A stretch of 51,515 bases of DNA, filler included, from Sphacelaria rigidula (taxonomy: Eukaryota), in assembly GCA_964200075.2 (NCBI GenBank). It is 4 parts of 4 records of this genome, joined end to end, with 100 filler letters (N's around TTAATTAATTAA, not from the genome) between each part and the next. Parts side by side here need not be neighbours in the genome. Positions count along the whole stretch, not along the records: positions 25,812 to 38,613 come from CAXNAA020003406.1; 3 more parts are not named here. One strand, 5' to 3'. Below are positions 6,051 to 41,780 of this stretch, in pieces. Position 1 is the first letter of the stretch. The number at the start of each line of letters is the position of its first letter. Below the pieces are notes generated by a model. The model did no database searches. It was given only the letters and a program-made list of their open reading frames with translations, and was not told the DNA's origin. The position numbers and the translations under genes were made by a program.

Positions 6051-9000
6051 AGCGGTGGCTAATGCATTGCAACAGGAGACGCAAACGAACACATGTCAGG
6101 GTATTCACGCGGTCGTCAGCGAAAGGGTGGGGTAGTGTGCTGGCATTATAGGCGTAGATACTGTGAAGTTTGTGGGCCGTAGGCAGTAGTTATGGCTTCG
6201 CTCGTCAGATCGTGGCCGGCCCTGGCGACACCGACTTGCGCACTGTTCCATGACCTCAAGACAAGTCAGCATAGCACGTGTTCTCCAAGTAGAATCGAAG
6301 GCTCACGAGTTTTCCACTGCAGTTTTGCGGTGCACTCAGTCGGCGCAGATTTCTGGCACAACAGTGCACTAGTACTATCCCGAGGGCAAGGGGTACAAGC
6401 TGTCCGCAGATGGGAGTTCGGAACAGCTCCAGGAGTAGTTTCAACTTTTGTTTTCCTCTGGTACTTGAGACAGATGCCGTTTGCCGTTTACAATTAGAGC
6501 CGCTACAAGCCTCAAACGTCAACATACCCGATCCGGCTGTGTCTTCATTGAAGCGGGCCGAGAAAATTATGGGTTAAAGCTCGAGTTGTCCAGGAGAAAT
6601 GTACCCCTCCATGAAAACACACCACAACCTCGTTGGGCCTTCAGACTAGAACATCTCCATCAGATTCAAAGTACGCAGCACAAGAATATCTGTGACGTGA
6701 GGGCGCACGAGGGCCCCTTCATCATTCACCAGATGCAGTCAGTATTCCGACGAAACACTCTCAACACGAGACCTTCAGCACAACGCCAACAAATCTACGG
6801 CATCCCCAAGTATTGTTAATGGTTGTTAACGCTGAAAATCAGTGTGGAAGTTGACGCACATCATCTCAGTGTGGAGTCGTGCTGCTGTACTTTGCGTCGC
6901 ACACAGATGGGAAGGGGAAGGGGGGGTCATGACACACAGGCGGGTTTAATGAGAGCTGCACTGACAGCATGATTCGCAGAAGGACAGCCCCGAAACAATC
7001 CGACCGCTCTGTGTGCTGTTGTAGATGTCGTGATACGTGACCTGTAGGCGAACGTAAAATGCGTATGAGGGCCAGCGTCGGTACTTGATCCCAAGCATGC
7101 CTGCTTGCTACAGCCTGCGCAAGACTTGCACCAACGCGGTGGGTTTGTTGTTCAGGTGTGTGTACCCCCGTCGCCACCCTAACTGTCCAACCGTCCAACC
7201 TTCTGGGGTGACAGCTTCCAGTTCGAAGAGCTCCGGAAATTCCGAGGCTGCATGTGGAACGCAGCAGGTGAATCATCGCATCAACTTCACGTGCGCCAGC
7301 TGAAAAGAGACAAAACTCGCCATCCTAGCTCCCTACAATGTACTGCAGGATCGACGTTTTACAGCACTCTGCCTCGAGATTTTTATCGTCATGGTGCCGC
7401 TTGCCGCCTGTGAGGTATTGACTGTACTGCACCGCCAGTGCCTGGAATGATTTAGCGACAAAAGCAGTGGAGTCACTATCGTTGAACACGTACGGAGTAA
7501 CCTGCCCAACCATTTATAGCGACCAGCGGCAGATGATACCGTGCCGTATTAGCCGGTGTGCAGGCGTTTTTGACGAGGGATCAAGTCGGAGAAACTGGAC
7601 AGCACTGCCCAACTTTCCCGCACCCGTACGGTACGATACGGTAGAGCGACAGAGTCCATATCTTTCCGAAGACCCCAAAATTTCGTGGAAACGTACGAAG
7701 TTCAGGGCTCGTGGCGCAGACGTTACGGTATGGGGATGGGGGCAGATGGACAGCGATCGAGATAGTCCACGTCCCGAAGCAAGGACGAGGAGACAGCAGC
7801 CTGCATGCAGGGCCACGGAGAGTGAAGGCAACACGTCCGCGCAGCACTCGAAATCATGTCTAGAGAACAACGATGGTGTTTTACCATGATTCTATACATA
7901 CGTGCTTCCATTCTTTTCTTGTTTGGAGTCAGCTATGCATCGCAACATATGTGAGCACAGTCACTACAACAGTCCTGCAATGTGTTTGTTGCTGCGGATT
8001 GCCAGACTAATGAAGGACGTTAGAAGGTGGGTATGCGGCATGCATACAAAACAGACAAAAGTGTGTGTTGCACGCAGAGAAACATCGGCACGATAGAAGA
8101 GAACAAGATGCATCAGCTGGTGCAAAATTCTGGCGGGAGAGTACTGTATTTGTAGTTCACGGCACACAACCGGAAAGAATGCACTTCACTGAAAAATCTT
8201 TGCAGGCAAAAAAAGTTGAACGGTCTCGAAACGACACGAGCGTTCATCAAATAACCCGCCCCACCCTTTCCCGCAGGTCATGGAGAATAGGAGTAGCGAT
8301 CTCGAACGGTCACGCACTGGACAAACACACCGGCATCAACAGGAGAAAACATGAGTCGTGCGTTCCCGCCGCACATCATGCGATTCTCACTGAAACGCGC
8401 TGTTCCGAACCAGGCATAACGAAACACAGAAAGCTAGCCGGCTGGAGCCCCTTGCGTGTCATCATGCACGTACGTTGATTTTACGCAAATATTTGAGAAA
8501 ATTGTGGGTGAGGTTTCTTCGTTGCCAGGGCTTTTGTGCGTGCGCACCGATCGGCAGATTTCGTCAGGTGACATGGACGTTGAATGAAACTTGAAGGGAA
8601 CGGACGGCGGACGCTTGGGTACGTTCTGGTGTGTCTTGTTTGCTTGTGAGAAAAAAATAACACTAGAAGGGACCTTGGTGTGTGCCGCACCAACAGGACA
8701 TTTGAATTGAAGAAAATGAGCTCCTACTGCCGGTGAAACTGCAGAACCGCACCCTACAGTTACAACAGGGTAAAGCACTACAGTTACTGTACCGTCCTGC
8801 ATCGGATCAGAGCTCCCCGACCGCCATATGCGTGCGTTTGCACAAAAAATACATGTTTTGTGCAAAAAAATACATGTGCATCAAAGAGGAGAAAAAGTCA
8901 GCCAAGGTGTTGCCGGCACGGATGAAAATAATAGCGCAACCAAACGAAGCCTCACAACCAACATCGTTGCTTGCTTCGACAGAGGTCATAGATAGAAAAT

Positions 9001-12806: not shown

Positions 12807-12906
12807 NNNNNNNNNNNNNNNNNNNNNNNNNNNNNNNNNNNNNNNNNNNNTTAATTAATTAANNNNNNNNNNNNNNNNNNNNNNNNNNNNNNNNNNNNNN
12901 NNNNNN
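12807..12906. other. Artificial contig linker N44-TTAATTAATTAA-N44
   Basis: Exactly 100 bp with a six-frame stop cassette; identical to the other two gaps. Confidence 0.98.
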
Positions 12907-23120: not shown

Positions 23121-23404
23121 GTGGGTCGGTCACTGGGTCGCCGCTCAGGAGCACAGAACACACCCGGCCGTCCACACCTTGTCTGTTTCGATCACATCAA
23201 AGACGAGCTGTGTATTGCGCGCTCGCTAGCTTCAGGTCGCGGGTTAATTCGCTGATTGATCCGTTGACGGATTCGATCACCGTCGCGCTTTAACTGCCCC
23301 GCTTCGAATCCAGCCTTGGTGTCACAGATAGACGTATCTATCCAACATTATTACAGGGAAAATGCTCGCTCAGGGAAAATTGAGAAAAAAGGGGCAATGT
23401 CATC

Positions 23405-23650
23405 GATTGATTTGATTTGATTTGATTTGATTTGATTTGATTTGATTTGATTTGATTTGATTTGATTTGATTTGATTTGATTTGATTTGATTTGATTTGA
23501 TTTGATTTGATTTGATTTGATTTGATTTGATTTGATTCGATTCGATTCGATTCGATTCGATTCGATTCGATTCGATTCGATTTGATTTGATTTGATTTGA
23601 TTTGATTTGATTTGATTTGATTCGATTTGATTCGATTTGATTCGATTGAT
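23405..23650. repeat. Compound pentanucleotide microsatellite (GATTT)n/(GATTC)n
   Basis: Directly visible, about 245 bp, with a central block of GATTC units. Confidence 0.97.
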
Positions 23651-24791
23651 TGTCGCACTTCATCTGACCCACGAGGGATCCAGCGGTGGTCACAAGACAG
23701 ACGTACCCGAGACAAGACAAAGCTGAAACACTCGCTCAAGAAAACACATATGTGTTTCTTCGACAAAAATGCCAGTTCGGCCGTGTCCATGCTGGTGGTG
23801 CACGGCATGTCTCGAATTGCCACAAGAGATATTACATGAAACGAAGTCAACCCCGTGCTGGATAACAAGAAAGTTCACATACCGCATCGCCGTTGATTAC
23901 TTCAAGCGCATATTTTACTCCCCGCTGCCGTTTGCGTGCAGTACTGTTTCTCGGACCTTATTTGCTCACGGAGTAAATTTGGTCGGATAAATTTACGCGG
24001 TAAGCTTCACCGAACGGTTCCGGTTTGTCGACGTATGAGTCAGTACAAATCAATGTTGGGGCGACGCATGGAATGTACAAAGTTACAGAAACACACGTTT
24101 TTTCAGAGGAATGATGTTCCCACCTTAGAGTCATGCTACGATAAGGGTGGGGGGAGGGGAGAGGGAGGTATTTCGGGCCGTTTTCTTTCACGAAATTCTA
24201 TTTCAATCGTCGTTGAAAGCAGCAACGGTTCTTTGGACGCGCATGACACCGCTCTCAACCAAATACAAGCGCACCGCGAGTGTGTTAGGTCGTCTGACGC
24301 ACCTATGAGCCCATTTTTCGTGGAATCGACCCCCCTCCCCCTATCGTAGCATGACTCCTTACAACAACACTCCCCTTGTTGCACTTGATGATGTGCCCTT
24401 AGTGACTGAGCAATGTTCAAGCGCTGCGCCTTGTCCATATTTGTACTTGGTTTGTGCTGTTGTACTTTCTATACATCGCTTTTCGTTTCGTGATCTAGCG
24501 GCGCCTGCCTGTATCAGCGTTTCCGTGGGCATTCATATTTAACGGACATCTAATGAAAAGATGTGACTTGTTGTGAAAGTAACTTGTTGTCCCCAGACAG
24601 CCTGGTCTGGTCGTCTGCGAACAACGTGCACACGAAATAGTTTGATGCAAGAGTAGCAATACTCTCTCATTGATATTGGTAGCACACATGCACAAGATGA
24701 ATTTTAGTAAAACGCATTTTATTCATTTATTTGTTCACTTACTCGTTTTTTTTCAACTCCTTATTATTACTATCATTTTCTCGTATCTCAG

Positions 24792-25711: not shown

Positions 25712-25811
25712 NNNNNNNNNNNNNNNNNNNNNNNNNNNNNNNNNNNNNNNNNNNNTTAATTAATTAANNNNNNNNNNNNNNNNNNNNNNNNNNNNNNNNN
25801 NNNNNNNNNNN
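25712..25811. other. Artificial contig linker
   Basis: N44-TTAATTAATTAA-N44. Confidence 0.98.
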
Positions 25812-25975
25812 AAGGGTCGCAACCGCAAAGAACCCATGATTTCCGTCGCTCAGCGGGTTGGAATGGAACCCCAAGTGACAGCGACTCAGGTGGTGCGCCA
25901 AGAGCGTGACCTAGGTTCGACTGTCCAAGAACTCATTTCAATAGCTCCTGGAGCCGCCGACCCTTTCGTGTGCTA
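25812..25975 (+). repeat. Terminal direct repeat copy 1 (internal gag/pol sequence)
   Basis: Matches 38450-38613 with 3 substitutions. Confidence 0.95.
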
Positions 25976-26061
25976 CACGCGTCACCAGAGCCGGGCCACT
26001 CCAGAGACAAGTCGATAACCCTGATGTAGCAAGCGCACGGGAACTCCACGGAGGATATTGC

Positions 26062-27324
26062 GTGCGGGCTCAGACAGATAAAAACCTTACAGTGGAACAG
26101 GCCGGTACTCCCCAGGTTTGGAATAGATCGTTACTGCTCCCTGACCACCCCGCGTGCAGTACGTTAGAACTCATTTCCGATGAAGCGTTGCCGTCTGTAG
26201 GTACAGAGACTTCGCCGACTCGTGGACGTTCGCATCCTAGTCATAAAGGCACCTCAATCGCGTGTTCGTCACCAGGCAAACAAAGTGTTACGCAAGACGA
26301 ATCGTCTCCTAACTCGCCCACGTTGGCCCCTTCAATAGGCGCCGGGCTGAACAGCACAGCTTTACCAACCCCGGGTCCTGACGAATCGTCTCCGAAACCT
26401 CCCATGTTGGCCCCAACTAGTGATGGTATTAAGTTGATTGACGTATCAAACTCAACACCGCGCCCCGATGAATCGTCCCCTGTTCCGACCAAGCTGGATA
26501 ATGTAATTGATCCCGCTTTGTACATTGACGATTTACCCTCTCTGTTGGCCAATAAGGGTGGAACACCACGCACAGATCAGTTGTCGGGTTCAACCACGAC
26601 AACTGCCCTTCCCCGGCACCGCCCCTCCTTTGCAGTGTATGAGATTCAACCCTCGACTGATGAGATAAATATTCCAGGCACAAACACTAACACTCCATGC
26701 ACGCACCATCCTTCCGACCAAAAGCTTGTCCCACAGGATCATCAACGGGTGTATTGTAGCACCTTCGTTCAAACCGCTAAGCAGGATGTGTCAGATGTCA
26801 TTCCCGAATTCGGGCTCGATCTCGTCAGTGGTACTGTCACTCTGGATGATGCTTCTTTCACGACCAAAATAGGTTTACATAGTGGAGCGCGTGCAAACTG
26901 TCATTTGATAGCTCTGGCACTACCAGACTCTGGTTCGCCTTAAAGGCTCATCACAGCCAGCTGCTGGCAACAGATGATCAACGCGGGCGCGACGGATGAG
27001 CATTGTCTGTCCACCGTGCACCCCCGTGTTTTCGGTGGCTTTGGTTCCTCCACATTTCCTACGGTCAATCAATCGGTTAGACCAAGTGTACAATTCTACC
27101 AGGATACTACTCCCACTGCTCGGTTGTGCGTATTGGCACAAATTGTGCCCGACGGCTCCATGTCTTTTGATGTTGTGTTGGGTCGAGATAGTTGGCTTCG
27201 TGTTTCCACACATACGTATGCGACGGACACACCTGTCCCGAACCGTCCAGTCACAGGCAAACTGTCTCTGGGTCACTTCGACACTGATTCGGAAGCTCAT
27301 GCATATGAGGATGACCCCACGTAA
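26062..27324 (+). pseudogene. Gag-pol linker and aspartic protease, disrupted
   Basis: GLHSGA (decayed LDSGA) near 26875 and FDVVLGRDSW near 27165-27195. In-frame stops. Three DESSP repeats at 26295-26480. Confidence 0.75.
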
Positions 27325-27399
27325 ACAGGTGATGCTTTCCGTCTGTACTATGTTGGTGAACCTGTAGTCTCGCTTTCCCGTGAACTCCAACTAATACAA

Positions 27400-29454
27400 G
27401 TGAACCTCGTGAGGCGCAATGGATCGCCCGCCCTCACAGGACATTATTTGGTCGAGTTGCTCAAACCTGACCAAGCACAGGTTGGTCCGTTTGAACAAAC
27501 CGAAGTCTTTGTCCATGAAAGTAGGCAGGCCATTTACCTCACGTCCCCTGCATGTTCCGATATGCTCAACGATCAGTTGTTGGGTTATGCTCAAGCGCCT
27601 CCCATTCAAACTGCCCTGTCAGATGTGTGCCCCCCGGCGAACAGCAACTCGCCGACCGATCCCCCGAAATCCACGGTTCCCCCTCCGCTACACATGCCTG
27701 ATCCCATGGTGGTGACAAATCCACCGGATGCGCCCGACCCTCAACCCCCAACTGCATTACTGGATAGATTTTCTCCAAAACAACGCGCCAGTTTTCAAAG
27801 GTTGTGGGATGACATTCTCCCTCACTTACGGCATATTGTTTTTGATCTATCTGGCGATGGTTGGACACCCACTGTAATCGATGGATCGAGATCAATCTTG
27901 ATCAGATACTCTGAACGGTTTTCTACTGCACCCTTGGACTTAGATCGATGTACCACGACACCGTTTAAGATCAAGATTCCTGATGGCACTCCGCCTATCG
28001 CTATGTGTCCGTACCGTACGAACCCCCTCTTAGCGGATAAGATCCAGGTAATTCTCGATGGTTACTTATCTGCCGGTTTGATTCGGCACTCGGCGTCTCC
28101 GTGGGCCTCGCCTTTAGTAGTCGTCCGTAAAAAGAATGGTAAAATCAGACTGACGGTCAATTATCAACGATTGAACGCTGTTACCAAAATAGCCCGTCTG
28201 CCACTTCCACGGATTGATGAAATTATTGACTCTCTTGGCGGGGGTAAAGTATTTTCGAACTTTGACATGCAGTCCGGCTACCACCAGCTCGTGATGGATC
28301 CCAATTCCATTGAACTGACAGCGTTTTGCACGCCATCAGGTTTGTACGAGTGGTTGGTTACACCACAAGGTGCCGCCGGAGCTCCAGGTGCGTTTCAACG
28401 TGTAATGTTCCGTGTAACTGATGGATTGCCCAAATGCCATATGTACCTTGATGATGCGGTGTGCCACGACTCCACACCGGCTGAACACGTCGAACAGTTG
28501 GCATCATTCTTCAATCGGTTTGAACAACACAACTTGAAACTCGCACCCTCCAAATCCCGCTTTGGCGCCACAAAGATTGAGTTCTTGGGTCATTGCATCG
28601 CCCCCGAAGGTCGTAGCCCAAACCTCGACAACGTCGCCGCACTCTCCGGTATGCCCATGCCACGGGACATTTCTCAACTGCGTTCCTTCTTGGGAGGTCT
28701 GAGCTACTACAGACAGTACTTGCCAAACCTTGCCCAAAAGCTAAACCCCCTCACCACCCTCCTCAAAAAAAGGGTGAAATTTGTGTTCACATCGGGCATA
28801 AAAAAACCCGTCTGCGGCCTCCTTGACACCCTTACGCGCCCGCCGATTCTCGTCCTCACCGACTGGTCGGCCGCGGAACAGGGTTCCCGCCCTTTCCGGC
28901 TCCACACAGATTCTTCCAAAATTGGGTTTGGTTGCACAATAGAACAGGAGCAAGTCGATGCTACTGTTCGTCCCATTGTCTACCTGAGTCGCACCACTTT
29001 TCCGAATGAACAGAATCGGTTTGTCATGGAACAGTAGGCCGGCGCAGTTGTTTGGGGCGTGCGACGTCTGCGTCAGTATTTGTATGACATCCCGTTTTTG
29101 ATTTATACCGATCACAAGTCGTTGGAAAGCCTTGCCAAAATGGCGGAACACAACGCTAGGGTTCAACGCTGGTTCGAAATCCTGTCGTCTTACCGCTCCC
29201 AACTGAAGTACCGCACAGGTCCCCAGAATGCAAGCGCCGACGTTCTGTCACGCTTGCCCACACCAGCTCAACCTATCGATGAATCCACCATGGGACGTAT
29301 CACCGATCCCACCGAAGACATTGTATATTTCATAAGCAGGAATGGACATAGAGGTCTCTACACACCACGTTCACTGAGTGAAACGCCGGCTTCAGGCATG
29401 GGTGGGCTGATGACCACAGCCCACGCATCAGCTCTAGGCAGCTTGCAACCTTGA
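27400..29454 (+). pseudogene. Reverse transcriptase-RNase H (Ty3/Gypsy)
   Basis: SPWASPLVVVRKKNGKIRL, FDMQSGYHQ, TAFCTP, YLDD, IEFLGH, LRSFLG, LHTDSS, YTDHKSL, NASADVLSR. In-frame TAG at 29035-29037. Confidence 0.95.
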
Positions 29455-29989
29455 TCGTTGTGCTCAGTTTGGAATGGACTGTCTATGAATACTGTTGGCT
29501 ATGATCATTTTCGTGCAACTGGCCAGCGCATGGTTTTCGCAGCAGGTGTAGAACCGTCTTTTACTGACTCCGTCTTACCAGTTCAAGTTTGAGATTTGAT
29601 TTCGAGTAGGACTCGTGGACGGCGAACCGCCGAAACGGCCACCAAATTAGCCGTATCTGGTCCTGACCTTCCCCTCCCTGCTCCCACCCCGGTCCCCGAT
29701 AGCTTCCTTGCACAACCGCAGCCTCCGAGAGGCAAGGCCCCCCGAAAATCGACCCCGACCGTGCCGCCCCTGCCAACCATAGCCGAAACCACGGCTGTGC
29801 CCCCCTCCCTTGGTGATGATATTGCAAACACCACCACAAACACCCTCCACGCTAATCGACGCAGGAGTATACGTTAACGTCCCGTCTGAGAGTGCACCAA
29901 CTGGTAGGCTCACCCTTGATCCCGAAATCACCGCTTCGTGCCAACCCCGCCCCGAACCGATCCCACACGAAGTCGATGCTTCAACAGAT

Positions 29990-31440
29990 GGTGTATTCAA
30001 GGAACGTTTGACTCTCTTCTCTCACGCCGATTGGGCCCGGGGACAACAGGCAGAACCTGCTTGTAAATCAGCTATCCATTATCTATCGAAAGGTTGCCCA
30101 TGTCCGTTCTCAGAAACCGAATTCCTTTTGCCAGTCGGGAATCTCAAAGCGCCCACACAGGATAAAGTTACTGAACTTTCCAGGAAAGGTATGCTACATA
30201 CGGATGATGATGGTATAGTTCTGTTAGTTCGCCGGCCACCAGCAGCCCTCTCCAGGGGGAAGCCTACAAGTCGACATGCCCGCTTGCTACGTGATGAACC
30301 CATCCGCATCTATGTCCCGATGCTCCTGCGCCCATGGGTTCTACATGAATGCCATTCACAGGCATCGACTCATTTAGGCGCCATTAGGACCTCCCAGATG
30401 TTGGAACGTTTTTATTGGTGGATTTGTATGGATCAGTGTTGTCGTTGGTGGGTGAGGCGTTGTCTTTTATCTCAGGCGCGAAAAACTTCTCGTCAAACAG
30501 TTCGTTGCCCGATTGTTTCCATGCCACTCCCAAACGGGCCTGGTAAAGTAGTGTCGTGGGACCATTTTGGTCCTTTGCCCCTGACGGATAGTGGAAATAG
30601 GTACATTTTGTTGTTTACGGATAGATTTAGTCGACATACGGTGATGCACGCCGTCCCCCCAGTAGTGATACCGCAGAAGGTACCGCCAACATTCTTGTCT
30701 ACATGTACATCCTACTGTGGGGTGTGCCCAAACGCTTACTGTCTGACAACGGCCCGCGTTTTTCAGGCAAACTTTCAGCTGCCGTCAGTGATCTTTTGGG
30801 TGCCCATCGCACTTTCACTAGTTCACATCACCCCTCCACCAATGGTGGAACGGAACGAGTGAACCATACGATGGCACAGATGCTTACTGCTGTAGCAAAT
30901 GAGATACAGATGGACTAGGATCTACATCTACCCCTTGTCCAGATGAACTACAACAATTCAGCCAATATCGCTAAGGGATTGTCGCCGAATGAAATTCGTA
31001 TTGGACGCCTTGACGGTATTCGAACGCAAAAATACAGGTGGACATCAGAGTCTGGATCGTGATGTTGCAGAGTATCATTTGTCGGTTAGCAATTGTCTTC
31101 GTCTTGCATATGAAGTGGTATGAGAACAAAACCAAATCAATTTGGCCGGGGTGGCCTCGATGTTGGATGATGTGGTGCATAACCGCCCGGTGTGGAAAGT
31201 AGGCCAATGGGCATGTGTGTATAACGATGTGAAGACCACCAATCAAGGGGCTAGCTCGAAATGATCATTTTTGGATAAAGTGTTGAAGGCGAAACTACCC
31301 TTGAATTGGACTGTTCCTTGGGAAATTTTAGCTGTTGGTCCGAGCTCTACCGCACCCAACAAAAGTCCGGTGGGGCGAACCTTTGTATTTTAAATTTCCC
31401 ACAGATGAACCTGGTTTGAAACCGTAAAAATCGCGTCTCG
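29990..31440 (+). pseudogene. Integrase (HHCC, DDE core, GPY/F-like), frameshifted
   Basis: HECHSQASTHLG...FYWW, WDHFGPLP, LFTDRFS, LLSDNGPRF, HHPSTNGGTERVNH, and KAKLPLNWTVPW near 31290-31320. Confidence 0.92.
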
Positions 31441-32172
31441 ATGCTACGATGCAAACCGTGTATGCCCCCTCATGACTCCTCCGACATGCCCAATCAACTG
31501 CCGGTAGGACTTAACCAGTATGTGTTGACCAAGTATGCGATCAAAACTCCGCCGTATCATATGACGGTCGAGGATGCGGACGCACCCCTGGAACGTGTTG
31601 GGGTAGATCGGATTCCGGGTCATCAACTGGTTCGTGGTCGTGGAGGTAAGATAGCGGTAATGTATCAAACACATTGGAAGGATATCATGCGTGTTACATG
31701 GGAGCGTGAGGTTGATTTGCGTCATTTTCGTCGGGAAATATTGCTGTGCTGGGTAGGAGATACCGTCCAACACCGCCCGTTGAATCAGAGATATCGGTCG
31801 ATGCGCAAGGGAGCTGCCGCTCGGGAACTGGCACGTGAACACTCAGCGCGGTTTGTTGTGAAAGGATATAGCCTTCTTTCGCGTTCACAATACATGCAGT
31901 GCTTTCACGGGAAACGATTGCCGAACGGGGCGTATTTTTGGTATAAGGCCTCGGATTCACTGTGGTGGTTGGGTGAAATTCATTTGGTCGATCCTGCATC
32001 TGACCAGTCCTACTTTATCCGTTTCCTTGATGAGCCGAGCCCCCATAAGATTCGCTTGGATGATGCGTACTACACCGAGGAGCCGACCGCTCGGAGGGGA
32101 TCCTGGTGCCTCTAACGACACGACCAAGGCGAACCCGAAACAGCCGTTCTACGGAACACGGACACCGCTTAG
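31441..32172 (+). pseudogene. Integrase C-terminal extension: chromodomain plus Tudor/PWWP-like module
   Basis: VDRIPGHQLVRGRGGKIAVMYQTHWKDIMRVTWEREVDL (31597-31752) fits the chromodomain pattern. LPNGAYFWYKASDSLWWLGEI...YFIRFLD starts at 31918. The TAA at 32113-32115 may be a decayed CAA, with the frame continuing to TAG at 32172. Confidence 0.7.
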
Positions 32173-34573
32173 GATGCAGATGACTCATGATGCGGCATCC
32201 GAGTCTGCTTCCCTATTCACCTTGCGTAGTGTACCGCGTTCGAGTCGCTTGTCTTGCACAGTAGCGTCGTTGGAAAACCATGTGCTCCCCCCCCTCCCTC
32301 CCTTCGTTTGTGTTTCGTACTAACTAGCCCCGTGCTTGTAGTGGTTGATGTTGTGTTTTGTAATTGGTATGTGGTCTTTAGTTTTTGTATCTTGATTTTT
32401 TTTTCTGGTGTGTTTTGTTTTTGTTGCTTTGGACCTGATTTTGTGTTTCGATTTTCTTTGCCCTTGCGTCAATTGTTTTGATTTGTTTTTGTCTTCTTTT
32501 CTTCTCTTTTTGCCTTGTGCTATGTTTTCGATTTTTGTGTTCAATGGGTAATTTTCTTGGTTAATCCTGGGTTCATCTGGCAAAGTACAAGTGACGACCG
32601 TTCCATTCCTGACCCCGAGTCTGGAACCTTGAACCTCCGTCCTCCGCGCCGTGCATTCACAACCATTCCTTCTACTGGAACAGTTGCCACAAGTTATTTC
32701 TTTCTTTATTTTTTTCCCATTGTACGCACATCTTGTCTTGCTTTGTTTTTTGCATGTTTTTTTTTTTTTTATCGAAGAGTTTCCGGAGCAAGCGCTAGCC
32801 ATACCTGATTCCACGATCTGGAATATTTGCATTCTTGTTCGATCGCTCCGCACGCGAGTGCCGCCTCCCTCTTCGGGATCGGTCGTGACGTGTCCCTTTT
32901 TTTTGTGTGCGTACCACGCTGAGTTTTGTATTAACATGGGTGATAGTAGCCGAAGCCGAATGCCTGAAATGTTTACATCTCTTAATTGGAAATTTTGACT
33001 CTGCTGGCTTCATACACACGATAACCGCTCCCGTTTACAAGGACGGTTGCCACGTGTTGTTTTTCTACTTTATGTTACAGATTTTCGTTTTCGCTGTTGC
33101 CCAGCGTGCCCCTCGTTTTGTATTTATTTTCTTTTTGGTTTCTGCGTCTATGTCGGAAATTTCACCTAGAGTGTTCCAACGTTCCTGACTCTCGAATCTA
33201 GAACACTTGGCCTATTGTTTTGCGAGTCCTGCCGCATGTGACCGACCTCGTTTATAGGAGGGTCACGGGTGATGCGACGCGATGATTCATACTTTTTTGG
33301 TGATTGTTAAGTTACAACGAGGCCACCACTAGCCGCGTCGTACATAGCGGTGTTGAAGAACTGTTATTGAAGTCGCGGTGAGATCGGTTGCAAACGTCTC
33401 CTGCTACAGGACCATCAGGTATCATGATGAGGTAGATCGCTTTTTCGGGACTGTCCGTTCCGCCATGTCCATTCTCGACCGTTGGTACAGCCTACAGGCT
33501 CAGAGTCTGCCACTGGTTACTTTTTTCTGTCACTTTTACCAGTTTTTGCGTACAGTTACCCGCCCCTGAAATTGGTCGGTGGTGTTTTGTTTTTATCAGG
33601 GATTATTGGATGAAGTAACGTGACGGTACGACCGTCTGTGGGTTTTACTCCAGTTTGTGTTCGGACCAGTCTCGTTCAGTCCGAACGGGCAAATGCTGTG
33701 AGGAGTGGGCTGCGTTGGTCCTCTCTGTCCTGTATATTTGTCGTGGTTCAGACATGTGTTGGGCGATCCGCCTCGGAACTACGTAGTAGGCCCGAAGGTT
33801 GTGTATTGTCCACCACGGCCCCTTTGACCTGTACAGACACCTGACCTCACAAACCAGTCGGTTGTTTTCGTATCGTCGTGTGAAAAAAACGCAATGCTGT
33901 ACGACTGGATCATCAACCAGGCGTCCCAAGCAAGTCGTTGTTCTCACAAACATGTACCGACAATTAACTCACGTCAAACGGGTTGAATTGTCCGTATCAT
34001 TCTATTTTTATATCAGCGTATGGTTTTCGCGAGAAACTACCATTTCCGCGACGACATCGGCTGTACGTTGTTAGCTTTTGCTGATTGACTGGGACGAGTG
34101 ATTAGCATGAACTTGGTTATCGAAGTGATATAATGCCTTGGCGGGCATGCTTGTTTTTCTACCAATGACCTAAAACAAATCGGATATCCGGAGAAGAGCG
34201 AACTATTTATTCATGATATACTTATGGCAGGGTAGAATAATCGTTTTAATGATTGGTCTCTGATTTCCTGTGTTCCACCCGGAAATGCTTACGACATTCT
34301 GGAGACACTGCATTTTGTGGTATATGGTTTGATAATTGATTTCGGGTCTGTATTATTATTTTGTTTTGGATTTCCCATGACCCCGTCTGAAGAACTCACG
34401 GAACATCAGGACACCGAATCATTGTATCGGTTCGATTGTTTTTTTTCTCTTTGCTTTGTGCTTGTGTTTGTATTTTATGGGTTTTTTTTGTGTTGATCAC
34501 CCCTTCCCGTTCCCCGTACCCAAGAGGACTCGCTCTCCAAATTGAGTCTCAATTTTTTGTGGTGTGGGAGAGC

Positions 34574-36284
34574 TGTGGCTCGATGCAAGTTCGTCCCTTC
34601 TGAAAAGTGACTGCACTTGAACGACCCAGGACGGGCTACTGTGATGGTAAATGACTGTGTCTGAATTTGAACCAGTTCTTTGGGATTCGCGGAGATCCCC
34701 AGAGACGACAGGCGGGTATGAAAAGATTCTAGGCGAATGTGTACTTTGTAAAGTAGATATGTGTGTCTTGGATCTTTGATTGAGGAACCTGTAGACTGGT
34801 CTGTGCATTACGGCCGGGCAATTACGCACGTTACTCCGGGCGCTTTGATTGGCCACAGCACGGCATGTCAGGCTGATTTTGTAGTTTGATTGACTGTATC
34901 CGGTTGGCTGTATGGGGCACACACCCACCCGAGGCACGCGCCTTCATGACGGTATTATGGCAAATTGTAAGCGAGGCAGGAGGTGTCGGGAAAACTGTGG
35001 ATATAGCCCTGCTCCCCACCTCCCGCCACTTGCGAACCACAGCCAGAAACGGCTACAGTAGAACTAATCACAAGAAGGACCATCAGCTTTTCATCTGCTC
35101 TGCTCGACGTCTCACCCTCTGCCGGCAAGCCGTGACAAGCTAACAACGAGTAAGTCACGAGTGACATAATCCCTCGGTGTCAATTGGTGTTTCTTTTTTT
35201 CGAAAGAGCTCGATGCTTACTTTCAATAACAGCTGTCTGCTGTTGACGAGTGCAGTGTGCGAGTGAAACCTACTGTTTGAGATAACGAGTCGAAAACAGG
35301 ACCAGTGGATCACATATTCACCCATCTTGGGTTGTGGCTTGCTCTGCTAACGAATACTTCGACATTCATGGGGCTTCAAAGTTAGCTTGTTTCGTTCAAG
35401 CGGTAGGGTTTCTCTCTCACCGGCGGCTGTGCACGCATCCGTCGAACACAAGCTTACTTTTCTTTTTTCAAGCTCTTGTGATTTCAGTTGTTGTTTTCGC
35501 TTGATATTTGTGTACACGATCATCGGTGTAACACGCGCGGGTAATTAGACAGCTTCTTGGGCAGCTGTTTTCTCTTTTACTCGGAGTTTGACAGACATCC
35601 CGACTCAAGTTAGCTTCAAGGAGTCGATGTGTCATACAGTACCCAAGTTGGTTTCAGGCAGTGGCGACCGAACCATGAGGCGCTTCAGGTACGAGCGCAC
35701 ACGCAAGCCCTCTTTTGCTGCACAAGCATATTCCCCGCAACCTGCAGGTCGTATCGACGGTTCAAGCCAACCCACTGTGGCGGATGCGCTCTCTCTCTGG
35801 TAACGTTATACACTGCACAGAGAACGCATAGCGATTTCATGCACACTCGATCTGAAGTTCCGTGTCCTTTTTCACCCACAGGCGGTTCTCGGATAATAAA
35901 GCCGCTCACACATTCCTTGTGTAGATACGCCCCTCACGGACCCGTAGCTTTGTCAACGCCCCCCCAACCACCTGCCCCCGCAAGCGCCCCTGCTCACAGT
36001 CTGTCGATTCTGTATCAACCGAATCGACTGACATGTGTCCCAACACACGCCGATTCATGCTCGCAGGTAGGGAGTTCGCGGACTATTTCAATCGCCGCCC
36101 GCTGTACATACGACTTTTCTTGCCCAAACACGGAACGTTGAGCCACCATGCGCACCGAAGTATATCGATGCGACATGATGGACCAGGATTGAGAATGTTG
36201 TCTGTCCACGAGCATGATTGAACACGGCGAGGCGTGAGGCTCATGTTACTTGTTCACTTTCACACGGCACCAGGGTACACTACA
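34574..36284 (+). repeat. Candidate single LTR of the contig 3 element
   Basis: Preceded by GAGGAC...TTTTTTG and a decayed purine tract (GGTGTGGGAGAGC). Starts TGTGG; a candidate end is GGGTACACTACA. The 5' part is homologous to 46160-46460. The 3' boundary is tentative. Confidence 0.5.
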
Positions 36285-37337
36285 GTTTGATTGCCACCCC
36301 ACCACCACGCACTATAGTACATACTTGATCGTCCAGAAGGCCACGTACCTTTCCCGTTGAAATATTGTTCCGAATTGAAGTACAGACAACAGTACAGCAC
36401 CGTTTGAATTACAAGTGGTCCCAGCGGGTAATATCTTGCCGACGGTGAGGTGCCGTGCTGGAGCATACGTTGGTACTGCTGCACTATCTGAACGGAATCA
36501 TCTACATTGCATCGTAGATATGAACATGGCGAGGATATAGCGGGTGTAGGGTGTTCTTCGTGCAATACGAACGAATTGACGTCGGTACAGCACCATCGAC
36601 CCGACCCTCCGCTACCCCACGCGAAGATCATATGTACTGTAGTTTGCCACCGTGCATTTTGTGATCTGGTGCTTGGTACGCTGCTGTTGTACTGCACTAC
36701 ATATTTGTATTACGGTTGTGCTTGTACATTTATAGACTGTTTACCTGCACGATGATACGTCATAATCCACCCCCGACTCGGCTATTTTCAGCGAACTACG
36801 AGGTACTGTAATGAATATCGCCAGCTGCGCTGGTATTCCCTCTGGAAACACAACATCCGGTAGTTATTTTTTCCTCTGCCTCAACGTGTTCTCAAAATAA
36901 AACTGAGCGGTTTGACGTTGCTGTTCGCTGCATCCCACACGTCTATTCCTTCGTGCCATGCAGGTTTGTTCATGCGCTGTTGCGCTGGTGACAGACACTG
37001 TATGTCTGTTAATTGTGACAACCTTCATTTTCTTGTCTCTTGCTATTACAATATACTCCAACACACACACACATACGGTTTGTTATTTGCCTTCAATATA
37101 TATTTTTTCCTTTCGTCTGCGCCTGATTGAAAAGGTGGTAGACGTCATATATGTGCGGAGTGCGCGGAACTACATGTCGACCGACTGTCGACAGTACCCT
37201 GCCACTCTATCCCTTTCATTTTGTTCACTCCGCCTCAGTCCTCAACAGCTATGCTGTCTCCCACAACGAAAAGTTCACTTTTCAACCCCCGCATCCCTAC
37301 GTCAACGATCTGGCGCAATTGCGTAGGTGTACAAGCT

Positions 37338-38613
37338 ATGTCGGATATTAACCGCCCTCCGACTTCATCGGAGCACGATGTCACGAAGGACGGGTCGCTC
37401 CCTACAGACCATGGTAAACAACCGTACAAATCCACCACGCGTAGTGAGACGAGTGACAAAAATGAACCAGAACGTTGTGACGTTGATGATAGCGTTGTTG
37501 CAGGACGTATTATCAGGGACATGAGTGTGGATGAAGACAATTCTCCTCCACATGCTCACCCTGACCCCGTTGGTGCCCACTCCCCTGCACACCGACCAGC
37601 CACTCAAAGCGCTGACGGTGTTCCCACTCTTCTTTCTAAGATGGCATCGCTCCACGTGAGCCCTAATGCTACGAAAACCTTTACTGACGATAACCTCCTC
37701 ACCCCACCAGGGCGGTACCCACACAGCACTGATGCTCACCTCACAACTTGACAACCTCTTGGGAACGTTTTACAAGTTGCGGAGATTCCAAATAGCATAG
37801 AGTGGGGTAACCCAGGACGCGTTGCTTAGCTCAAAAGCCACGCCCCGCCACCTACCTGTTTATTTTTCTACTTCTGTGCGTCATTTCTCATAGGTTGGTA
37901 CAACCCCACAATTAGAAATAAACAACGATCGGTAATTCACTGTGGAAGTACGCAACAATTTATGACAACCATTTCTTTCGCTCGGCCAGGTCACACACAT
38001 CACACGTACGAATCGGCGGTGGCCACCGCGGGTTTAACCATGTGGTGTGGGTTCCCTGGATATGCTAACACTGCCTTGAAGGGTTCCAAGACAGTCGAAG
38101 CCCGTGCACTGTTGCATGACTATCAGTTGAGCAGTGACCAACTCAACGTTTTAACCCTGGATTTGATCACCCAGTTTTACATTCATCAGGTACTAATCAT
38201 ATTCAATCGAATCCCCTCCCTTCGAAGGAGAGGATGTCATGTAGTGCAGTTTCTCACGCATCAGGAGCCGAAATATCTTTTGGTACGATAGACACTGCTG
38301 CTCCGACCGTTCATCGGTGAACACAAAACTCAAAGCCACACACTCAAGCACCCCCCAACTGCTCAAGTGCCCGGCTAACCACCCTACCGAGTTCCGCAAA
38401 AACTAAGGTACCCGGTTCCCTTTCATTTGATGAGCGTGATTATTCCTTGAAGGGTCGTAACCGCAAAGAACCCATGATTTCCGTCGCTCAGCGGGTTGGA
38501 ATGGAACCCCAAGTGACAGCGACTCAGGTGGTGCGCCAAGAGCGTGACCTAGGTTCGACTGTCCAAGAACTCATTTCAATAGCTCCTGGAGCCGCCGATC
38601 CTTTCGTGCGCTA
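37338..38613 (+). pseudogene. Gag region, disrupted
   Basis: Starts MSDINRPPTSS..., followed by broken ORFs. A decayed zinc knuckle near 38360-38400 (C..KCPANHPTEF, then CGC for TGC) runs into the terminal repeat that continues at 25812. Confidence 0.55.
38450..38613 (+). repeat. Terminal direct repeat copy 2
   Basis: 164 bp, 161/164 identical to 25812-25975. Confidence 0.95.
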
Positions 38614-38713
38614 NNNNNNNNNNNNNNNNNNNNNNNNNNNNNNNNNNNNNNNNNNNNTTAATTAATTAANNNNNNNNNNNNNNNNNNNNNNNNNNNNNNN
38701 NNNNNNNNNNNNN
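38614..38713. other. Artificial contig linker
   Basis: N44-TTAATTAATTAA-N44. Confidence 0.98.
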
Positions 38714-39420: not shown

Positions 39421-40928
39421 TCGCACCGTGCGCCTTCCCTCCCCCCAGAATCGATCTAACCTGCCCTAAGAAGGCGTCCTCCTCCTGTTGGCGTTTCAGC
39501 CCGGGTGCGGCCATCAACATCTGTATCGCCTTCGCGAATGCTGACGTGTCTACCGCGGTTTTCGCCAAAGTCCAAGGGCAATCCTCCCCAGCCGTGAGCA
39601 CTTCTTCCACTTTCAGCCGCTCGCTGATTGGGACGGGGGTGATGGGGGTAGGCTCCATCGTAGGAACTTCAATAGGCGTGAGACCTACCGGCGGCTGAAG
39701 ACTCATTTGGACATCTGTGGGCACGGTACGTATGCGAGCAGCGCCGGGGAACTGTAAACGCGCGGATGGTTGGCGAATTCTGGGGGAACTACGGGATAGT
39801 TCGTCTTCTATTGACGCGCAGTCAGCAAAAGGGAGTGTTCGCGAGGTGCCTAGGTATCTCGTCTCGGCTACATCTATCTGGTCTAACTTGAAACCATAGG
39901 CTGACAATTTTGACAACCATTCCCCATCCAGTTGTGGACCGCGGAACCGTCCGGCTTCCGACGGTGTGCCAGAGGTGGAATCGTCGGGAAATGAGTCGTC
40001 TATGCCGTTTCAGGGTTTCTGTTGATGCGGGAGACGGGACATGGCGTCAATTAACACGTGTTGGGTTCCCTCCCGCCATCAAAGTTTCATGTTGTACTCC
40101 ATGAGTCGAAGCACCCACCTGTGTAGCTTGCGACACAGATCACGACTACGAACCAACCATGTCAGCGCGGAACAGTCGGTGACTAATCTACACTTCCTGC
40201 CCGCTAGGTACGGTCTGAAGTGTTGGACTCCCCGTATTACAGCCATACATTCCCTTTCCGCGGGTGCTCGGCGCGACTTTGTACGTGAAACCCGATGACT
40301 GGCAAATGCGATGATGCAAGACTCGTCCTCCACTGGCTGTAAGAGAGTGTCTCCCGCATTCACTGTGCTGGTATCCGTCTGCACTTGGAAGGTGCTGTTC
40401 AAGCCGGGAAAAGCGAGTATCGTTGACGATGCTAGGGAAGACTTGAGTATCTGGAACGCTGCTCCCTCGTCATCACCCCACGGAATGGTCAACTTTCGTA
40501 CACGGCGTAAGGCAAATTATTTGCTGCGAAGAATGTTGGTCAACGGGGCGGCTATTATGCTGTACTTCTCGACAAACTGTCTGAGGTACCCGGTGAGTCC
40601 GAGAGACAAACGGAGTTCCTCAACAGTGCGTGGACGTGACATCTTAGCTACTGATGTGAGTTTGGACGGGGCCAGTTGTATGCCTGTACTGTCGATCAAC
40701 ATGCCAAGGAACTCCTGGGACGGTGCTGCAGAGCTGCATTTGGCAAAGTTCACCGAGAATCCTGCAGTCGACAGTCGTTACAACTTCATGGTGAGTAGAG
40801 CGAAGTGCTCGTCCCACGAGGGGCTGGCTATGAGGATGTCATCTAGCCAGCTGTGTACGCCAGTCAGGTTGCCTATCGTTAACTTCACTCTACGAGTAAA
40901 CGCCGCCGGGAGTACTGTCAGTCCAAAA

Positions 40929-41780
40929 GAAACCTTGCGGCCGTTGTACGGCATCTCCAGCGCCAGTACAGGAACAACACGACCATCGACGATGACATAT
41001 TCCTGCGCCTCATTCATTTCGGTCAGCAGTACAGCACTCCGCACCGCCTTTTTGAAAAACGAAGTAGCCTCCCGCTCACAGGAACAACAACTCTCCCCTT
41101 ACACCGAGACGCGCTGTATCACCTTACAACGACAATGGCCACAGCGCCACTTCCTCACGCAGGTCTCACCACGTGTTTGAAGTCCTTAGGCTCCTCTTCC
41201 TGGCCGTACCTGGTCAAGCGTGGAACAAGAAACTCTCGCTGGCTCCACCAGGCAGTAATTTCGCCGCTTTTCTGGGACGATGTTGGGCTCGCCAGCTGTC
41301 GATCGACCGCTCGCACCTCACGCACGAGCGCTACCATAACCCGCCCTAGCACTACCTCAGAACCTCCTCGGCTCTACTTGTCCAACTTCTCGCAACGTTA
41401 ACACGCCTTGAGCTGGTCTTGTTTGCTGCAAATTGATCAGGCCTGCAGACTTCCCTACCTTGAAGTGTCAGCTTCTTTTTCAGCGGACCTACCGCCTTTC
41501 AGCGGACTTAATGAACGTTCATTATAGACTTCTGTCACTCAAGATTAGAGTGCCATGTGGACTCCTCCCATCACGGGCACATGGACTGCAGCAGCTTTAG
41601 TTATTCATGTATTAGACCTTAGCATATACAGGAGAACAGGACAATAGCCTCTCTCCACCAGAGTGGCAAAAGCAAGCCTCAAGTCATGGAGGTCACCCAT
41701 CACAGAGTCCGGCAATCAGACCCGCAACTCCACCTACAAATGTCCCTAAATTTAGATAACCATGGTGGCTAGAGTCTATA
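40929..41780 (-). mobile_element. About 850-bp insertion splitting RT
   Basis: RT reads FEFTRAGF up to ~41781 and resumes FGLTVLPAAF at ~40928. GGTTTCT (minus strand) occurs at both junctions. Confidence 0.75.

Follow-up and report, generated by a model that had tools for sequence, protein, structure and literature searches.

The choice of landing sites by a transposon is seen most clearly in fusions between an integrase and a chromatin reader: integration is biased by the chromodomain of MAGGY, which targets H3K9me, and, for HIV, by the PWWP domain of the host protein LEDGF. All of the well-studied integrase-reader fusions that we know of carry a single chromodomain. In chromoviruses and in the oomycete element Chronos the chromodomain is described as following directly after the integrase of a Ty3/gypsy element (PMC5348765), and in a survey of reader-transposon fusions Chromo and PHD are listed as the readers that commonly occur (bioRxiv 10.1101/2021.11.30.470311). 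From the brown alga Ectocarpus four Gypsy lineages have been described, three with putative C-terminal chromodomains, one of which has in addition an N-terminal NADAR domain (e.g., Gypsy-12_Ec32), and a fourth, Gypsy-10_Ec32, with a C-terminal Tudor domain, described there as the first of its kind to be reported from a transposable element (PMC12477816, Genome Biol 2025). The supplementary table of that paper agrees, giving each lineage either a chromodomain or a Tudor domain, and its reverse transcriptase phylogeny places the chromodomain lineages of brown algae apart from chromoviruses and from Chronos alike (PMC12477816). A chromodomain and a Tudor domain within one integrase was not found in the literature, including the text and supplementary table of PMC12477816; the FASTA libraries and domain-alignment PDF of that paper, which lie outside this coverage, may show the tandem. 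Here we describe a Ty3/gypsy family in which a predicted Tudor domain is added behind the chromodomain with which chromoviruses and Chronos end. We conclude that the feature is real, and we consider that the chromodomain-Tudor tandem probably steers the landing of new copies.

The window, by which we mean the whole stretch of 51,515 nucleotides from Sphacelaria rigidula that was analyzed (GenBank assembly GCA_964200075.2), consists of four contigs of 12,802-12,806 nt each, with 100-nt spacers (N44-TTAATTAATTAA-N44) between them. The third contig carries a broken Ty3/gypsy pol with the following features:

25812-38613, plus strand, contig carrying the element (third of the four contigs)
28123-28593, plus strand, reverse transcriptase domain (RVT_1) of the degraded Ty3/gypsy pol (Pfam, E = 9e-26)
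28879-29193, plus strand, RNase H domain, interrupted by an in-frame stop at 29035-29037
29972-31390, plus strand, integrase, from ungapped tblastn with intact relatives, with frame changes and three in-frame stops
30314-30487, plus strand, integrase H2C2 zinc domain (Pfam)
30658-30834, plus strand, fragment of the integrase rve core (Pfam)
31307-31342, plus strand, GPY/F-like motif WTVPWEILAVGP of the C-terminal integrase part, in a frame other than that of the 231-codon module
31450-31476, plus strand, conserved C-x2-C-x3-H-D motif CKPCMPPHD upstream of the chromodomain, with low model confidence
31588-31761, plus strand, module 1, predicted chromodomain fold in which three strands are followed by a C-terminal helix (residues 57-114 of the 231-aa frame)
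31762-31914, plus strand, linker with two confidently predicted helices (aa 123-140 and 155-162), including the basic NQRYRSMRKGAAARELAR
31915-32112, plus strand, module 2, predicted Tudor-type barrel closest to the Tudor domains of PHF1, PHF19, and MTF2 (aa 166-231)
32113-32187, plus strand, remnant of a C-terminal tail with private stops at 32113-32115 and 32170-32172, which aligns to the intact paralog P0156

The frames with Pfam matches are 27325-29037 and 29038-29454 (RVT_1 and RNase H), 29783-30862 (H2C2), and, in a different frame, 30631-30918 (the rve fragment). Ungapped tblastn places frame changes in this copy near 30655-30670, 31010, 31385, and 31425, and in-frame stops at 30916, 31121, 31262, 32113, and 32170; the window copy is a pseudogene, the dead relic of an element. 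Over about 1000 residues its pol is 40-42% identical to two metagenome loci, L001 and L002, which are described below. Downstream of pol (32160-38450) no Pfam family was found in nine frames of at least 110 aa, and no NADAR domain is detectable in the window's own contig. The 164 nt at each end of this contig are 98% identical to one another, and no other long repeat was found within it; because this sole long repeat abuts the assembly spacers, the LTRs, the TSD, and the element length are undefined. A search for an LTR pair in L001 and L002 also found none. Elsewhere in the window, an ORF on the minus strand (3732-6095) has EsV-1-7 cysteine-rich repeats (E = 3.6e-60), in keeping with a brown-algal source.

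The broken pol ends in 231 open codons (31420-32112, plus strand). Translation of 31420-32322 contains VDRIPGHQLVRGRGGKIAVMYQTHWKDIMRVTWEREVDL, followed by the linker and then by LPNGAYFWYKASDSLWWLGEIHLVDPASDQSYFIRFLDEP running on to GSWCL, after which comes a TAA at 32113-32115. These are exactly the strings that the initial annotation had quoted for a chromodomain pattern, a basic linker, and a second pattern, and the number of relatives found by phmmer (665, see below) rules out that the pattern is due to chance. The same annotation had placed this segment after a GPY/F-like motif, which does lie upstream, although in the window copy it is in another frame, and had proposed reading through the TAA. 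The readthrough is borne out: homologs extend about 25-45 residues past the window's first stop, and a paralog from S. rigidula, P0156 (324 aa, 89% identical to the window module), has neither of the two terminal stops. At positions 32113 and 32171 nearly all of the depth in each of the four sequencing runs has another letter than the assembly. Given these differences and the readthrough of P0156, the terminal stops at 32113 and 32170 are private to the window copy. A zinc clasp joining three upstream residues (C79, C82, and H86) to two at the end of the Tudor domain (C298 and H302; P0156 numbering, 51-84% conserved) was also considered and was set aside as unsupported, the upstream segment having a pLDDT below 50.

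Searching 1.84 billion cluster representatives with phmmer identified 665 proteins at E ≤ 1e-3, 296 at E ≤ 1e-10, and 32 at E ≤ 1e-30, many of which cover residues 2-231 of the query in a single stretch. In addition to P0156, named members come from Nemacystus decipiens (P0124) and Laminaria digitata (P0183, in the cluster of P0153); no longer named relatives of the distant member P0112 were found. The initial annotation required that the segment be in frame with integrase in other copies, and this was found in several long relatives. Pfam H2C2 and rve domains are followed by the whole module in P0152 (779 aa, 59% identical to the window) and P0154 (799 aa, 52% identical), and in P0180 (1315 aa) RNase H, H2C2, and rve precede the module, which lies at residues 1056-1281 and is 52% identical to that of the window. 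The metagenome locus L001 has an uninterrupted frame of 2386 codons that encodes, in order, NADAR, RVT_1, RNase H, H2C2, rve, chromodomain, and Tudor, and in L002 a NADAR frame precedes a pol of 1636 codons that ends as L001 does, in chromodomain and Tudor. The NADAR domain (YbiA-family) upstream of the reverse transcriptase was identified with E = 1.9e-45 in L001 and E = 1.8e-52 in L002. Because the tandem occurs in these two NADAR-bearing loci, the NADAR lineage that was published as chromodomain-bearing appears to carry a Tudor domain as well, behind the chromodomain. The likeness to the Ectocarpus elements extends to the brown-algal host, the class of element, the position of the reader at the integrase C-terminus, and, for L001 and L002, the NADAR domain; they differ, in a comparison with the published descriptions only, in that each Ectocarpus lineage has one reader where this family has a tandem, and in that the window contig has no detectable NADAR (PMC12477816).

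Synonymous sites are saturated between L001 and L002 (pS 0.63-0.86), for which reason pN and pS are given here instead of dN/dS. The values of pN are 0.10 for the chromodomain and 0.24 for the Tudor domain, and 0.23 for the reverse transcriptase and 0.11 for the integrase core; with pN this low at saturated pS, both modules are therefore kept by selection, and the purifying selection on them is about as tight as that on the enzymes. Copy number is very high in the sequenced organism, as 1523, 1727, 63, and 61 contigs of the four sequencing runs align to a 1-kb stretch of the element. High-depth family contigs occur in two runs guessed to be RNA, an observation that counts as no evidence of expression. 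With coverage of at least 80%, 177 proteins divided into 38 with both modules, 91 with the chromodomain only, 28 with the Tudor domain only, and 20 with neither. Neither the presence nor the absence of a true chromodomain-only form follows from these counts, because each of the 40 chromodomain-only proteins listed ends no more than 135 residues past the chromodomain; in three of these 40 proteins (P0102, P0043, and P0106) the 86-123 residues past it show no alignment with the Tudor part.

Detection of the two domains by sequence profiles is at the margin, and at the Pfam curated cut-offs neither is called. The window ORF has no Pfam family at E ≤ 1, P0156 reaches 18.1 bits for Chromo (PF00385), below the curated cut-off of 25.1, and among 80 members there are, at E ≤ 1, eight matches to Chromo (the best at 1.7e-4), eight to an SH3 family, three to Agenet, and one each to PWWP (E = 0.12) and Tudor_2 (E = 0.14). 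When a profile of the 80 members, built from sequence alone and thus independent of the models, was compared with 177,635 PDB sequences, weak matches were obtained to the chromodomains of Swi6 (E = 0.027) and MPP8 (E = 0.12) and to the Tudor domains of PHF19 (E = 0.014-0.017) and PHF1 (E = 1.7-2.3). All leads in the ESM Atlas were below 0.9, the whole ORF leading to Chromo clusters at 0.77-0.78 and the Tudor part to KIF2A-like, Spin/Ssty, Tudor-knot, PTM_DIR17_Tudor, and Agenet clusters at 0.79-0.83. The chromo-box motif Y-x-x-x-W-x-G, as defined in PMC3350952, is present, with Y82 in 78%, W86 in 82%, and G at position 88 in 75% of the aligned members.

Two AlphaFold2 models were produced, the first from the window ORF heading an alignment of 80 sequences and the second from the intact paralog P0156 with 148 sequences, and across the module the pLDDT exceeds 90 in both. 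The model of the window ORF has a mean pLDDT of 84.5 and a pTM of 0.73, with pLDDT of at least 90 in 165 of the 231 residues and averages of 91-98 in 10-residue blocks from about residue 60 to residue 231. Its chromodomain part is predicted to have strands at 62-72, 78-86, and 92-96 and a helix at 97-112, i.e., a three-stranded antiparallel sheet packed on a C-terminal helix at pLDDT >90; helices at 123-140 and 155-162 and strands at 172-176, 182-190, 197-202, and 208-212 follow. The model of P0156 has the same fold with the addition of a fifth strand at 297-302 and a tail that is ordered to about residue 315, so that its Tudor part is a five-stranded antiparallel barrel (strands 240-244, 250-258, 265-270, 273-280, and 297-302).

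The window model was compared exhaustively with 48,161 PDB representatives, and a second comparison used the P0156 model. Residues 57-114 of the window model matched Chp1 (3g7l, Z 7.0, rmsd 1.7, 53 of 55 residues), HP1 (6mha, Z 6.5, rmsd 1.7, 51 of 53), and Polycomb (1pdq, Z 5.9), and the chromodomain of the P0156 model matched Chp1 and CDY1 (Z 7.3) and HP1 (1kna, Z 6.7, rmsd 1.2, 50 of 52 residues, 30% identity); the rmsd to Chp1 3g7l was 1.6-1.7 across the models. The fold search likewise matched module 1 to the chromodomains of HP1, Chp1, and MPP8. For residues 160-231 the best match was RDM15 (Z 5.9), followed by TDRD3, PHF20L1, MTF2 (5.5), SMN, and PHF19 (5.3), and the many Tudor rows included a single PWWP domain (6kco, Z 5.7), in complex with ssDNA. 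With both models the top Foldseek rows were the Tudor domains of PHF19, PHF1, and MTF2 at a probability of 1.00. Local matches over 47-51 columns had a TM of 0.62-0.67 on the target, rmsd of 1.8-2.6, and 26-32% identity, and the P0156 model gave longer matches to PHF19 (73-74 columns, TM 0.66-0.71, rmsd 3.9-4.2). Owing to the small size of the domains, these Tudor matches reach E-values of only 0.012-0.07. Taken singly, every match is borderline (E about 0.01 in Foldseek, Z below 8, and Z below 8 is common in such structural comparisons), and the weight of the fold assignment comes from the agreement between methods. The BFVD viral structures yielded neither a row at E ≤ 0.001 nor a coherent set of matches.

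On the strength of these models we assign module 1 to the chromodomain fold and module 2 to the Tudor-type Royal-family barrels. The initial annotation had staked its reading beforehand on an SH3-like/Royal-family barrel for module 2, which is what AlphaFold2 and Foldseek predict. Of its two candidates for that module, PWWP and Tudor, the Tudor fold of PHF1 and PHF19 is the closest, and PWWP is represented by one of 80 members in Pfam and one structural row. The resemblance to the Tudor domains of PHF1, PHF19, and MTF2, which are readers of H3K36me3, comprises the five-stranded barrel, the identity over 47-51 columns noted above, and a shared stretch of D-G-L-aromatic-aromatic-L-G-K-I. The differences are that the family has no aromatic equivalents of Trp41 and Phe71, that PHD fingers and a winged helix are absent, the domain being part of a pol polyprotein alongside RNase H, integrase, and chromodomain, and that its hosts are described as lacking PRC2 (PMC13076208).

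The methyl-lysine cages of the two modules were assessed by alignment to Swi6 and PHF19. The cage of the HP1 chromodomain is formed by Y24, W45, and Y48, of which W45 alone persists in shadow chromodomains and in the group II chromodomains of retrotransposons (PMC3350952). At the three corresponding positions, as aligned to Swi6, the family has L, V, or I (55, 8, and 8%), the tryptophan W86 (82% of members), and L, I, or F (62, 6, and 6%). The first of these rests on placing HP1 Y24 on the Swi6 Tyr, to which it presumably corresponds. As judged by this alignment the chromodomain cage is incomplete, with one of three aromatics, and its make-up is similar to that of the group II and shadow chromodomains, in which W45 is kept and Y24 and Y48 are lost (PMC3350952). 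In PHF1 the Tudor cage consists of W41, Y47, F65, and F71; the substitutions W41A, Y47A, and F65A disrupt or strongly reduce binding, and MTF2, which does not have the fourth cage aromatic, binds much more weakly (PMC7492083). The alignment to PHF19 is anchored by the shared D-G-L-aromatic-aromatic-L-G-K-I stretch. By this alignment the position of PHF1 W41 is occupied in the family by A, S, G, or T (39, 21, 14, and 8%, together 82%), that of Y47 by W183 (Trp in 70%), that of F65 by F202 (Phe in 77%), and that of F71, if the HMM alignment is extended without gaps by two residues, by Pro (83%), so that the Tudor cage would also be incomplete, with two of four aromatics. Four further aromatics that are conserved in the barrel (W174, Y175, W182, and W229) are near this cage and might supply an alternative pocket, and beside the cage is a conserved acidic residue, D204 (69%).

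The reading that we favor, and to which we give somewhat better than even weight, is that the chromodomain-linker-Tudor unit tethers the integration complex to chromatin and biases insertion, that its recognition is non-canonical, and that the window copy is a dead member of the family. Such a function is probable by analogy, given an architecture that parallels the chromovirus and Chronos fusions and the guidance of HIV by LEDGF. In HIV-1 a Royal-family barrel, the PWWP domain of LEDGF/p75 that reads H3K36me3, couples integrase to chromatin, as the Tudor barrel may do here; the difference is that LEDGF is a host protein bound non-covalently, whereas the window family would encode two readers in cis. 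Behind the integrase core and GPY/F region lies one compact unit, made up of the chromodomain, the two-helix linker, the PHF1/PHF19-type Tudor, and a short ordered tail, that would tether the integration complex and thereby bias where new copies insert. The Tudor barrel would be the likelier part to contact histones, and the chromodomain may be akin to the group II chromodomains of plant elements, which are likewise poor in cage residues.

Brown algae are described as being without H3K27 methylation and PRC2 and largely without H3K9 and DNA methylation; H3K36me3 marks the bodies of their expressed genes, and H3K79me2 and H4K20me3 mark chromatin that is repressed or rich in repeats (PMC13076208, PMC12477816). 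Non-canonical recognition would be expected because both cages appear incomplete and because brown algae do not have H3K9 and H3K27 methylation. The LTR elements of Ectocarpus are mostly in intergenic-distal sequence (PMC12477816), which argues against the gene-body target (H3K36me3) that the Tudor relatives suggest, unless selection has reshaped the pattern. As candidate targets we would put chromatin that is rich in repeats and poor in genes (H3K79me2 or H4K20me3) in first place, ahead of H3K36me3 in second. A more specific proposal, which we hold with little confidence, is that a fixed two-reader unit in cis recognizes a chromatin state specific to brown algae: for instance, the Tudor domain might read H4K20me3, H3K79me2, or H3K36me3 and the chromodomain add a non-methyl contact, and the Tudor domain might descend from a Polycomb-like gene that was taken from the host before PRC2 was lost. 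If this were true, the element would be the first transposon shown to have a combinatorial chromatin reader, and a probe for how heterochromatin is defined in brown algae.

The main rival to a histone-mark target is a non-histone partner or nucleic acid, the unit binding a host chromatin protein, DNA, or RNA and targeting integration by that means. We judge this to be unlikely, though not far-fetched, as the linker is strongly basic and conserved (R129 in 82%, R135 in 83%, and R139 in 80%), one of the structural matches is the ssDNA-bound PWWP (6kco), DNA binding has been reported for a Tudor domain (PMC13285377), and the cage-poor group II plant chromodomains localize to heterochromatin without a known histone ligand (PMC3350952). 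However, no partner is known, and the likeness to PHF1 and PHF19 includes the β1-β2 stretch DGL-aromatic-aromatic-LGKI that lines their peptide site.

The bivalent histone-mark targeting that was proposed in the initial annotation is weakened by the composition of the cages, with one of three and two of four aromatics. In its strict form, with each module binding its own methylated lysine by an aromatic cage and the pair reading a two-mark state, it seems to us improbable: H3K9me and H3K27me, to which chromodomains usually bind, are missing or almost missing from brown algae (PMC13076208, PMC12477816), and the loss of one cage residue already goes with much weaker binding in MTF2 (PMC7492083). 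Two reader folds with a confidently predicted linker, in a model whose pTM is compatible with a fixed arrangement, are nevertheless what such a reader would look like, the closest relatives of both modules are methyl-lysine readers, and D204 is conserved next to the Tudor cage.

We also doubt strongly that the unit has an internal role, i.e., that it regulates integrase activity or intasome assembly without choosing target sites. The C-terminal domains of retroviral integrases are SH3-like barrels with many roles (PMC9316232), and Foldseek returned rows to the RSV and MMTV integrases, but only at probabilities of 0.14-0.38 and an rmsd of about 20 Å; the element moreover retains its own GPY/F C-terminal region upstream, and the best matches are chromatin readers. 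That the module has no function, having arisen as an open frame by chance or as a piece of host sequence acquired by the window copy alone, is extremely improbable, for although this copy is a pseudogene and Pfam is empty on its ORF, there are 665 relatives, intact long frames, high-confidence folds, and amino acids conserved at saturated synonymous divergence.

What is undescribed here is therefore narrower than first proposed, since chromodomain and Tudor Gypsy elements are both in print (PMC12477816), and consists in the tandem within one integrase. A tandem of two different reader folds, abundant in at least three brown-algal genera, would extend the integrase-reader principle. The published picture from Ectocarpus would be amended in that the Tudor fold occurs beyond one Gypsy family, behind the chromodomain in NADAR-bearing elements. 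As the Pfam thresholds miss both domains, comparable tandems may be overlooked elsewhere. Finally, the repressive chromatin of brown algae is not built on the usual marks, and the ligand of this unit could therefore point to the marks of safe or silent chromatin in these organisms.

The reader unit is flanked by conserved Cys and His residues, arranged as C-x2-C-x3-H on the upstream side and as C-x3-H where the Tudor barrel ends. Conservation of these residues is 51-84%, and they occur at the following positions, given also for P0156, the intact S. rigidula paralogue:

31450-31476, upstream Cys/His motif (P0156 residues 79-86)
32107-32124, Cys/His motif at the barrel end (P0156 residues 298-302)

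It could be that these residues form a metal site, an idea against which the low model confidence of the upstream part (pLDDT <50) counts.

In both intact relatives from metagenomes, a NADAR domain precedes the RT (L001 973-1422; L002 2039-2488), and one Ectocarpus Gypsy lineage has been published with NADAR upstream of RT (PMC12477816). NADAR was not detected in the window's copy when its contig was searched; homology to L001 restarts there inside the last 45 residues of the NADAR position. In L002, the frame that precedes the NADAR frame contains four to five 78-nt tandem units (886-1272). Further along the pol, a proline-rich spacer, unusually long at several hundred residues, separates the RNase H from the zinc domain of the integrase; no recognisable domain was found in this spacer:

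about 29454-30300, proline-rich spacer (residues 193-676 of P0180, the 1315-residue protein relative)

Likewise, no recognisable domain was identified between the pol end and the terminal repeat (32160-38450, ~6.3 kb), where nine frames of at least 110 aa were examined. That repeat consists of the same 164 nt at both ends of the element's contig (25812-25975 and 38450-38613, 98% identical). Either the contig starts and stops within both LTRs of one element, with a period of 12,638 nt, or a collapsed repeat gave rise to an assembly overlap.

Coding sequences were also identified on other contigs of the window:

3732-6095, minus strand, open frame of 787 codons in which the EsV-1-7 cysteine-rich motif (PF19114, E=3.6e-60) occurs five times
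40028-40996, minus strand, fourth contig, second Ty3/gypsy remnant, unrelated to the first

Members of the EsV-1-7 family are known in brown algae as well as in their phaeoviruses, and this frame sits in a G+C-rich stretch (60-65%). The second Ty3/gypsy remnant includes a frame with an RNase H domain (40079-40516, E=3e-25), and its RT has only 26% identity to the L001 pol.

The window itself looks like unplaced contigs, sorted by size (12,806, 12,805, 12,802, and 12,802 nt) and put end to end with three spacers:

12807-12906, 25712-25811 and 38614-38713, spacers of 100 nt each, N44-TTAATTAATTAA-N44

As such contigs are merely strung together, neighbourhood across the spacers is without meaning. 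A tandem array of ~36 units with a period of 10 nt lies at 23337-23696.

The reader module was also found in predicted proteins with unrelated N-terminal parts preceding it, namely P0124, from a gene model of Nemacystus decipiens, and the 626-residue P0066, and the alignment of its members includes one with a Pfam WSC hit and one with a TIMP hit. Such proteins are either chimeric gene models spanning transposon remnants or domesticated copies.
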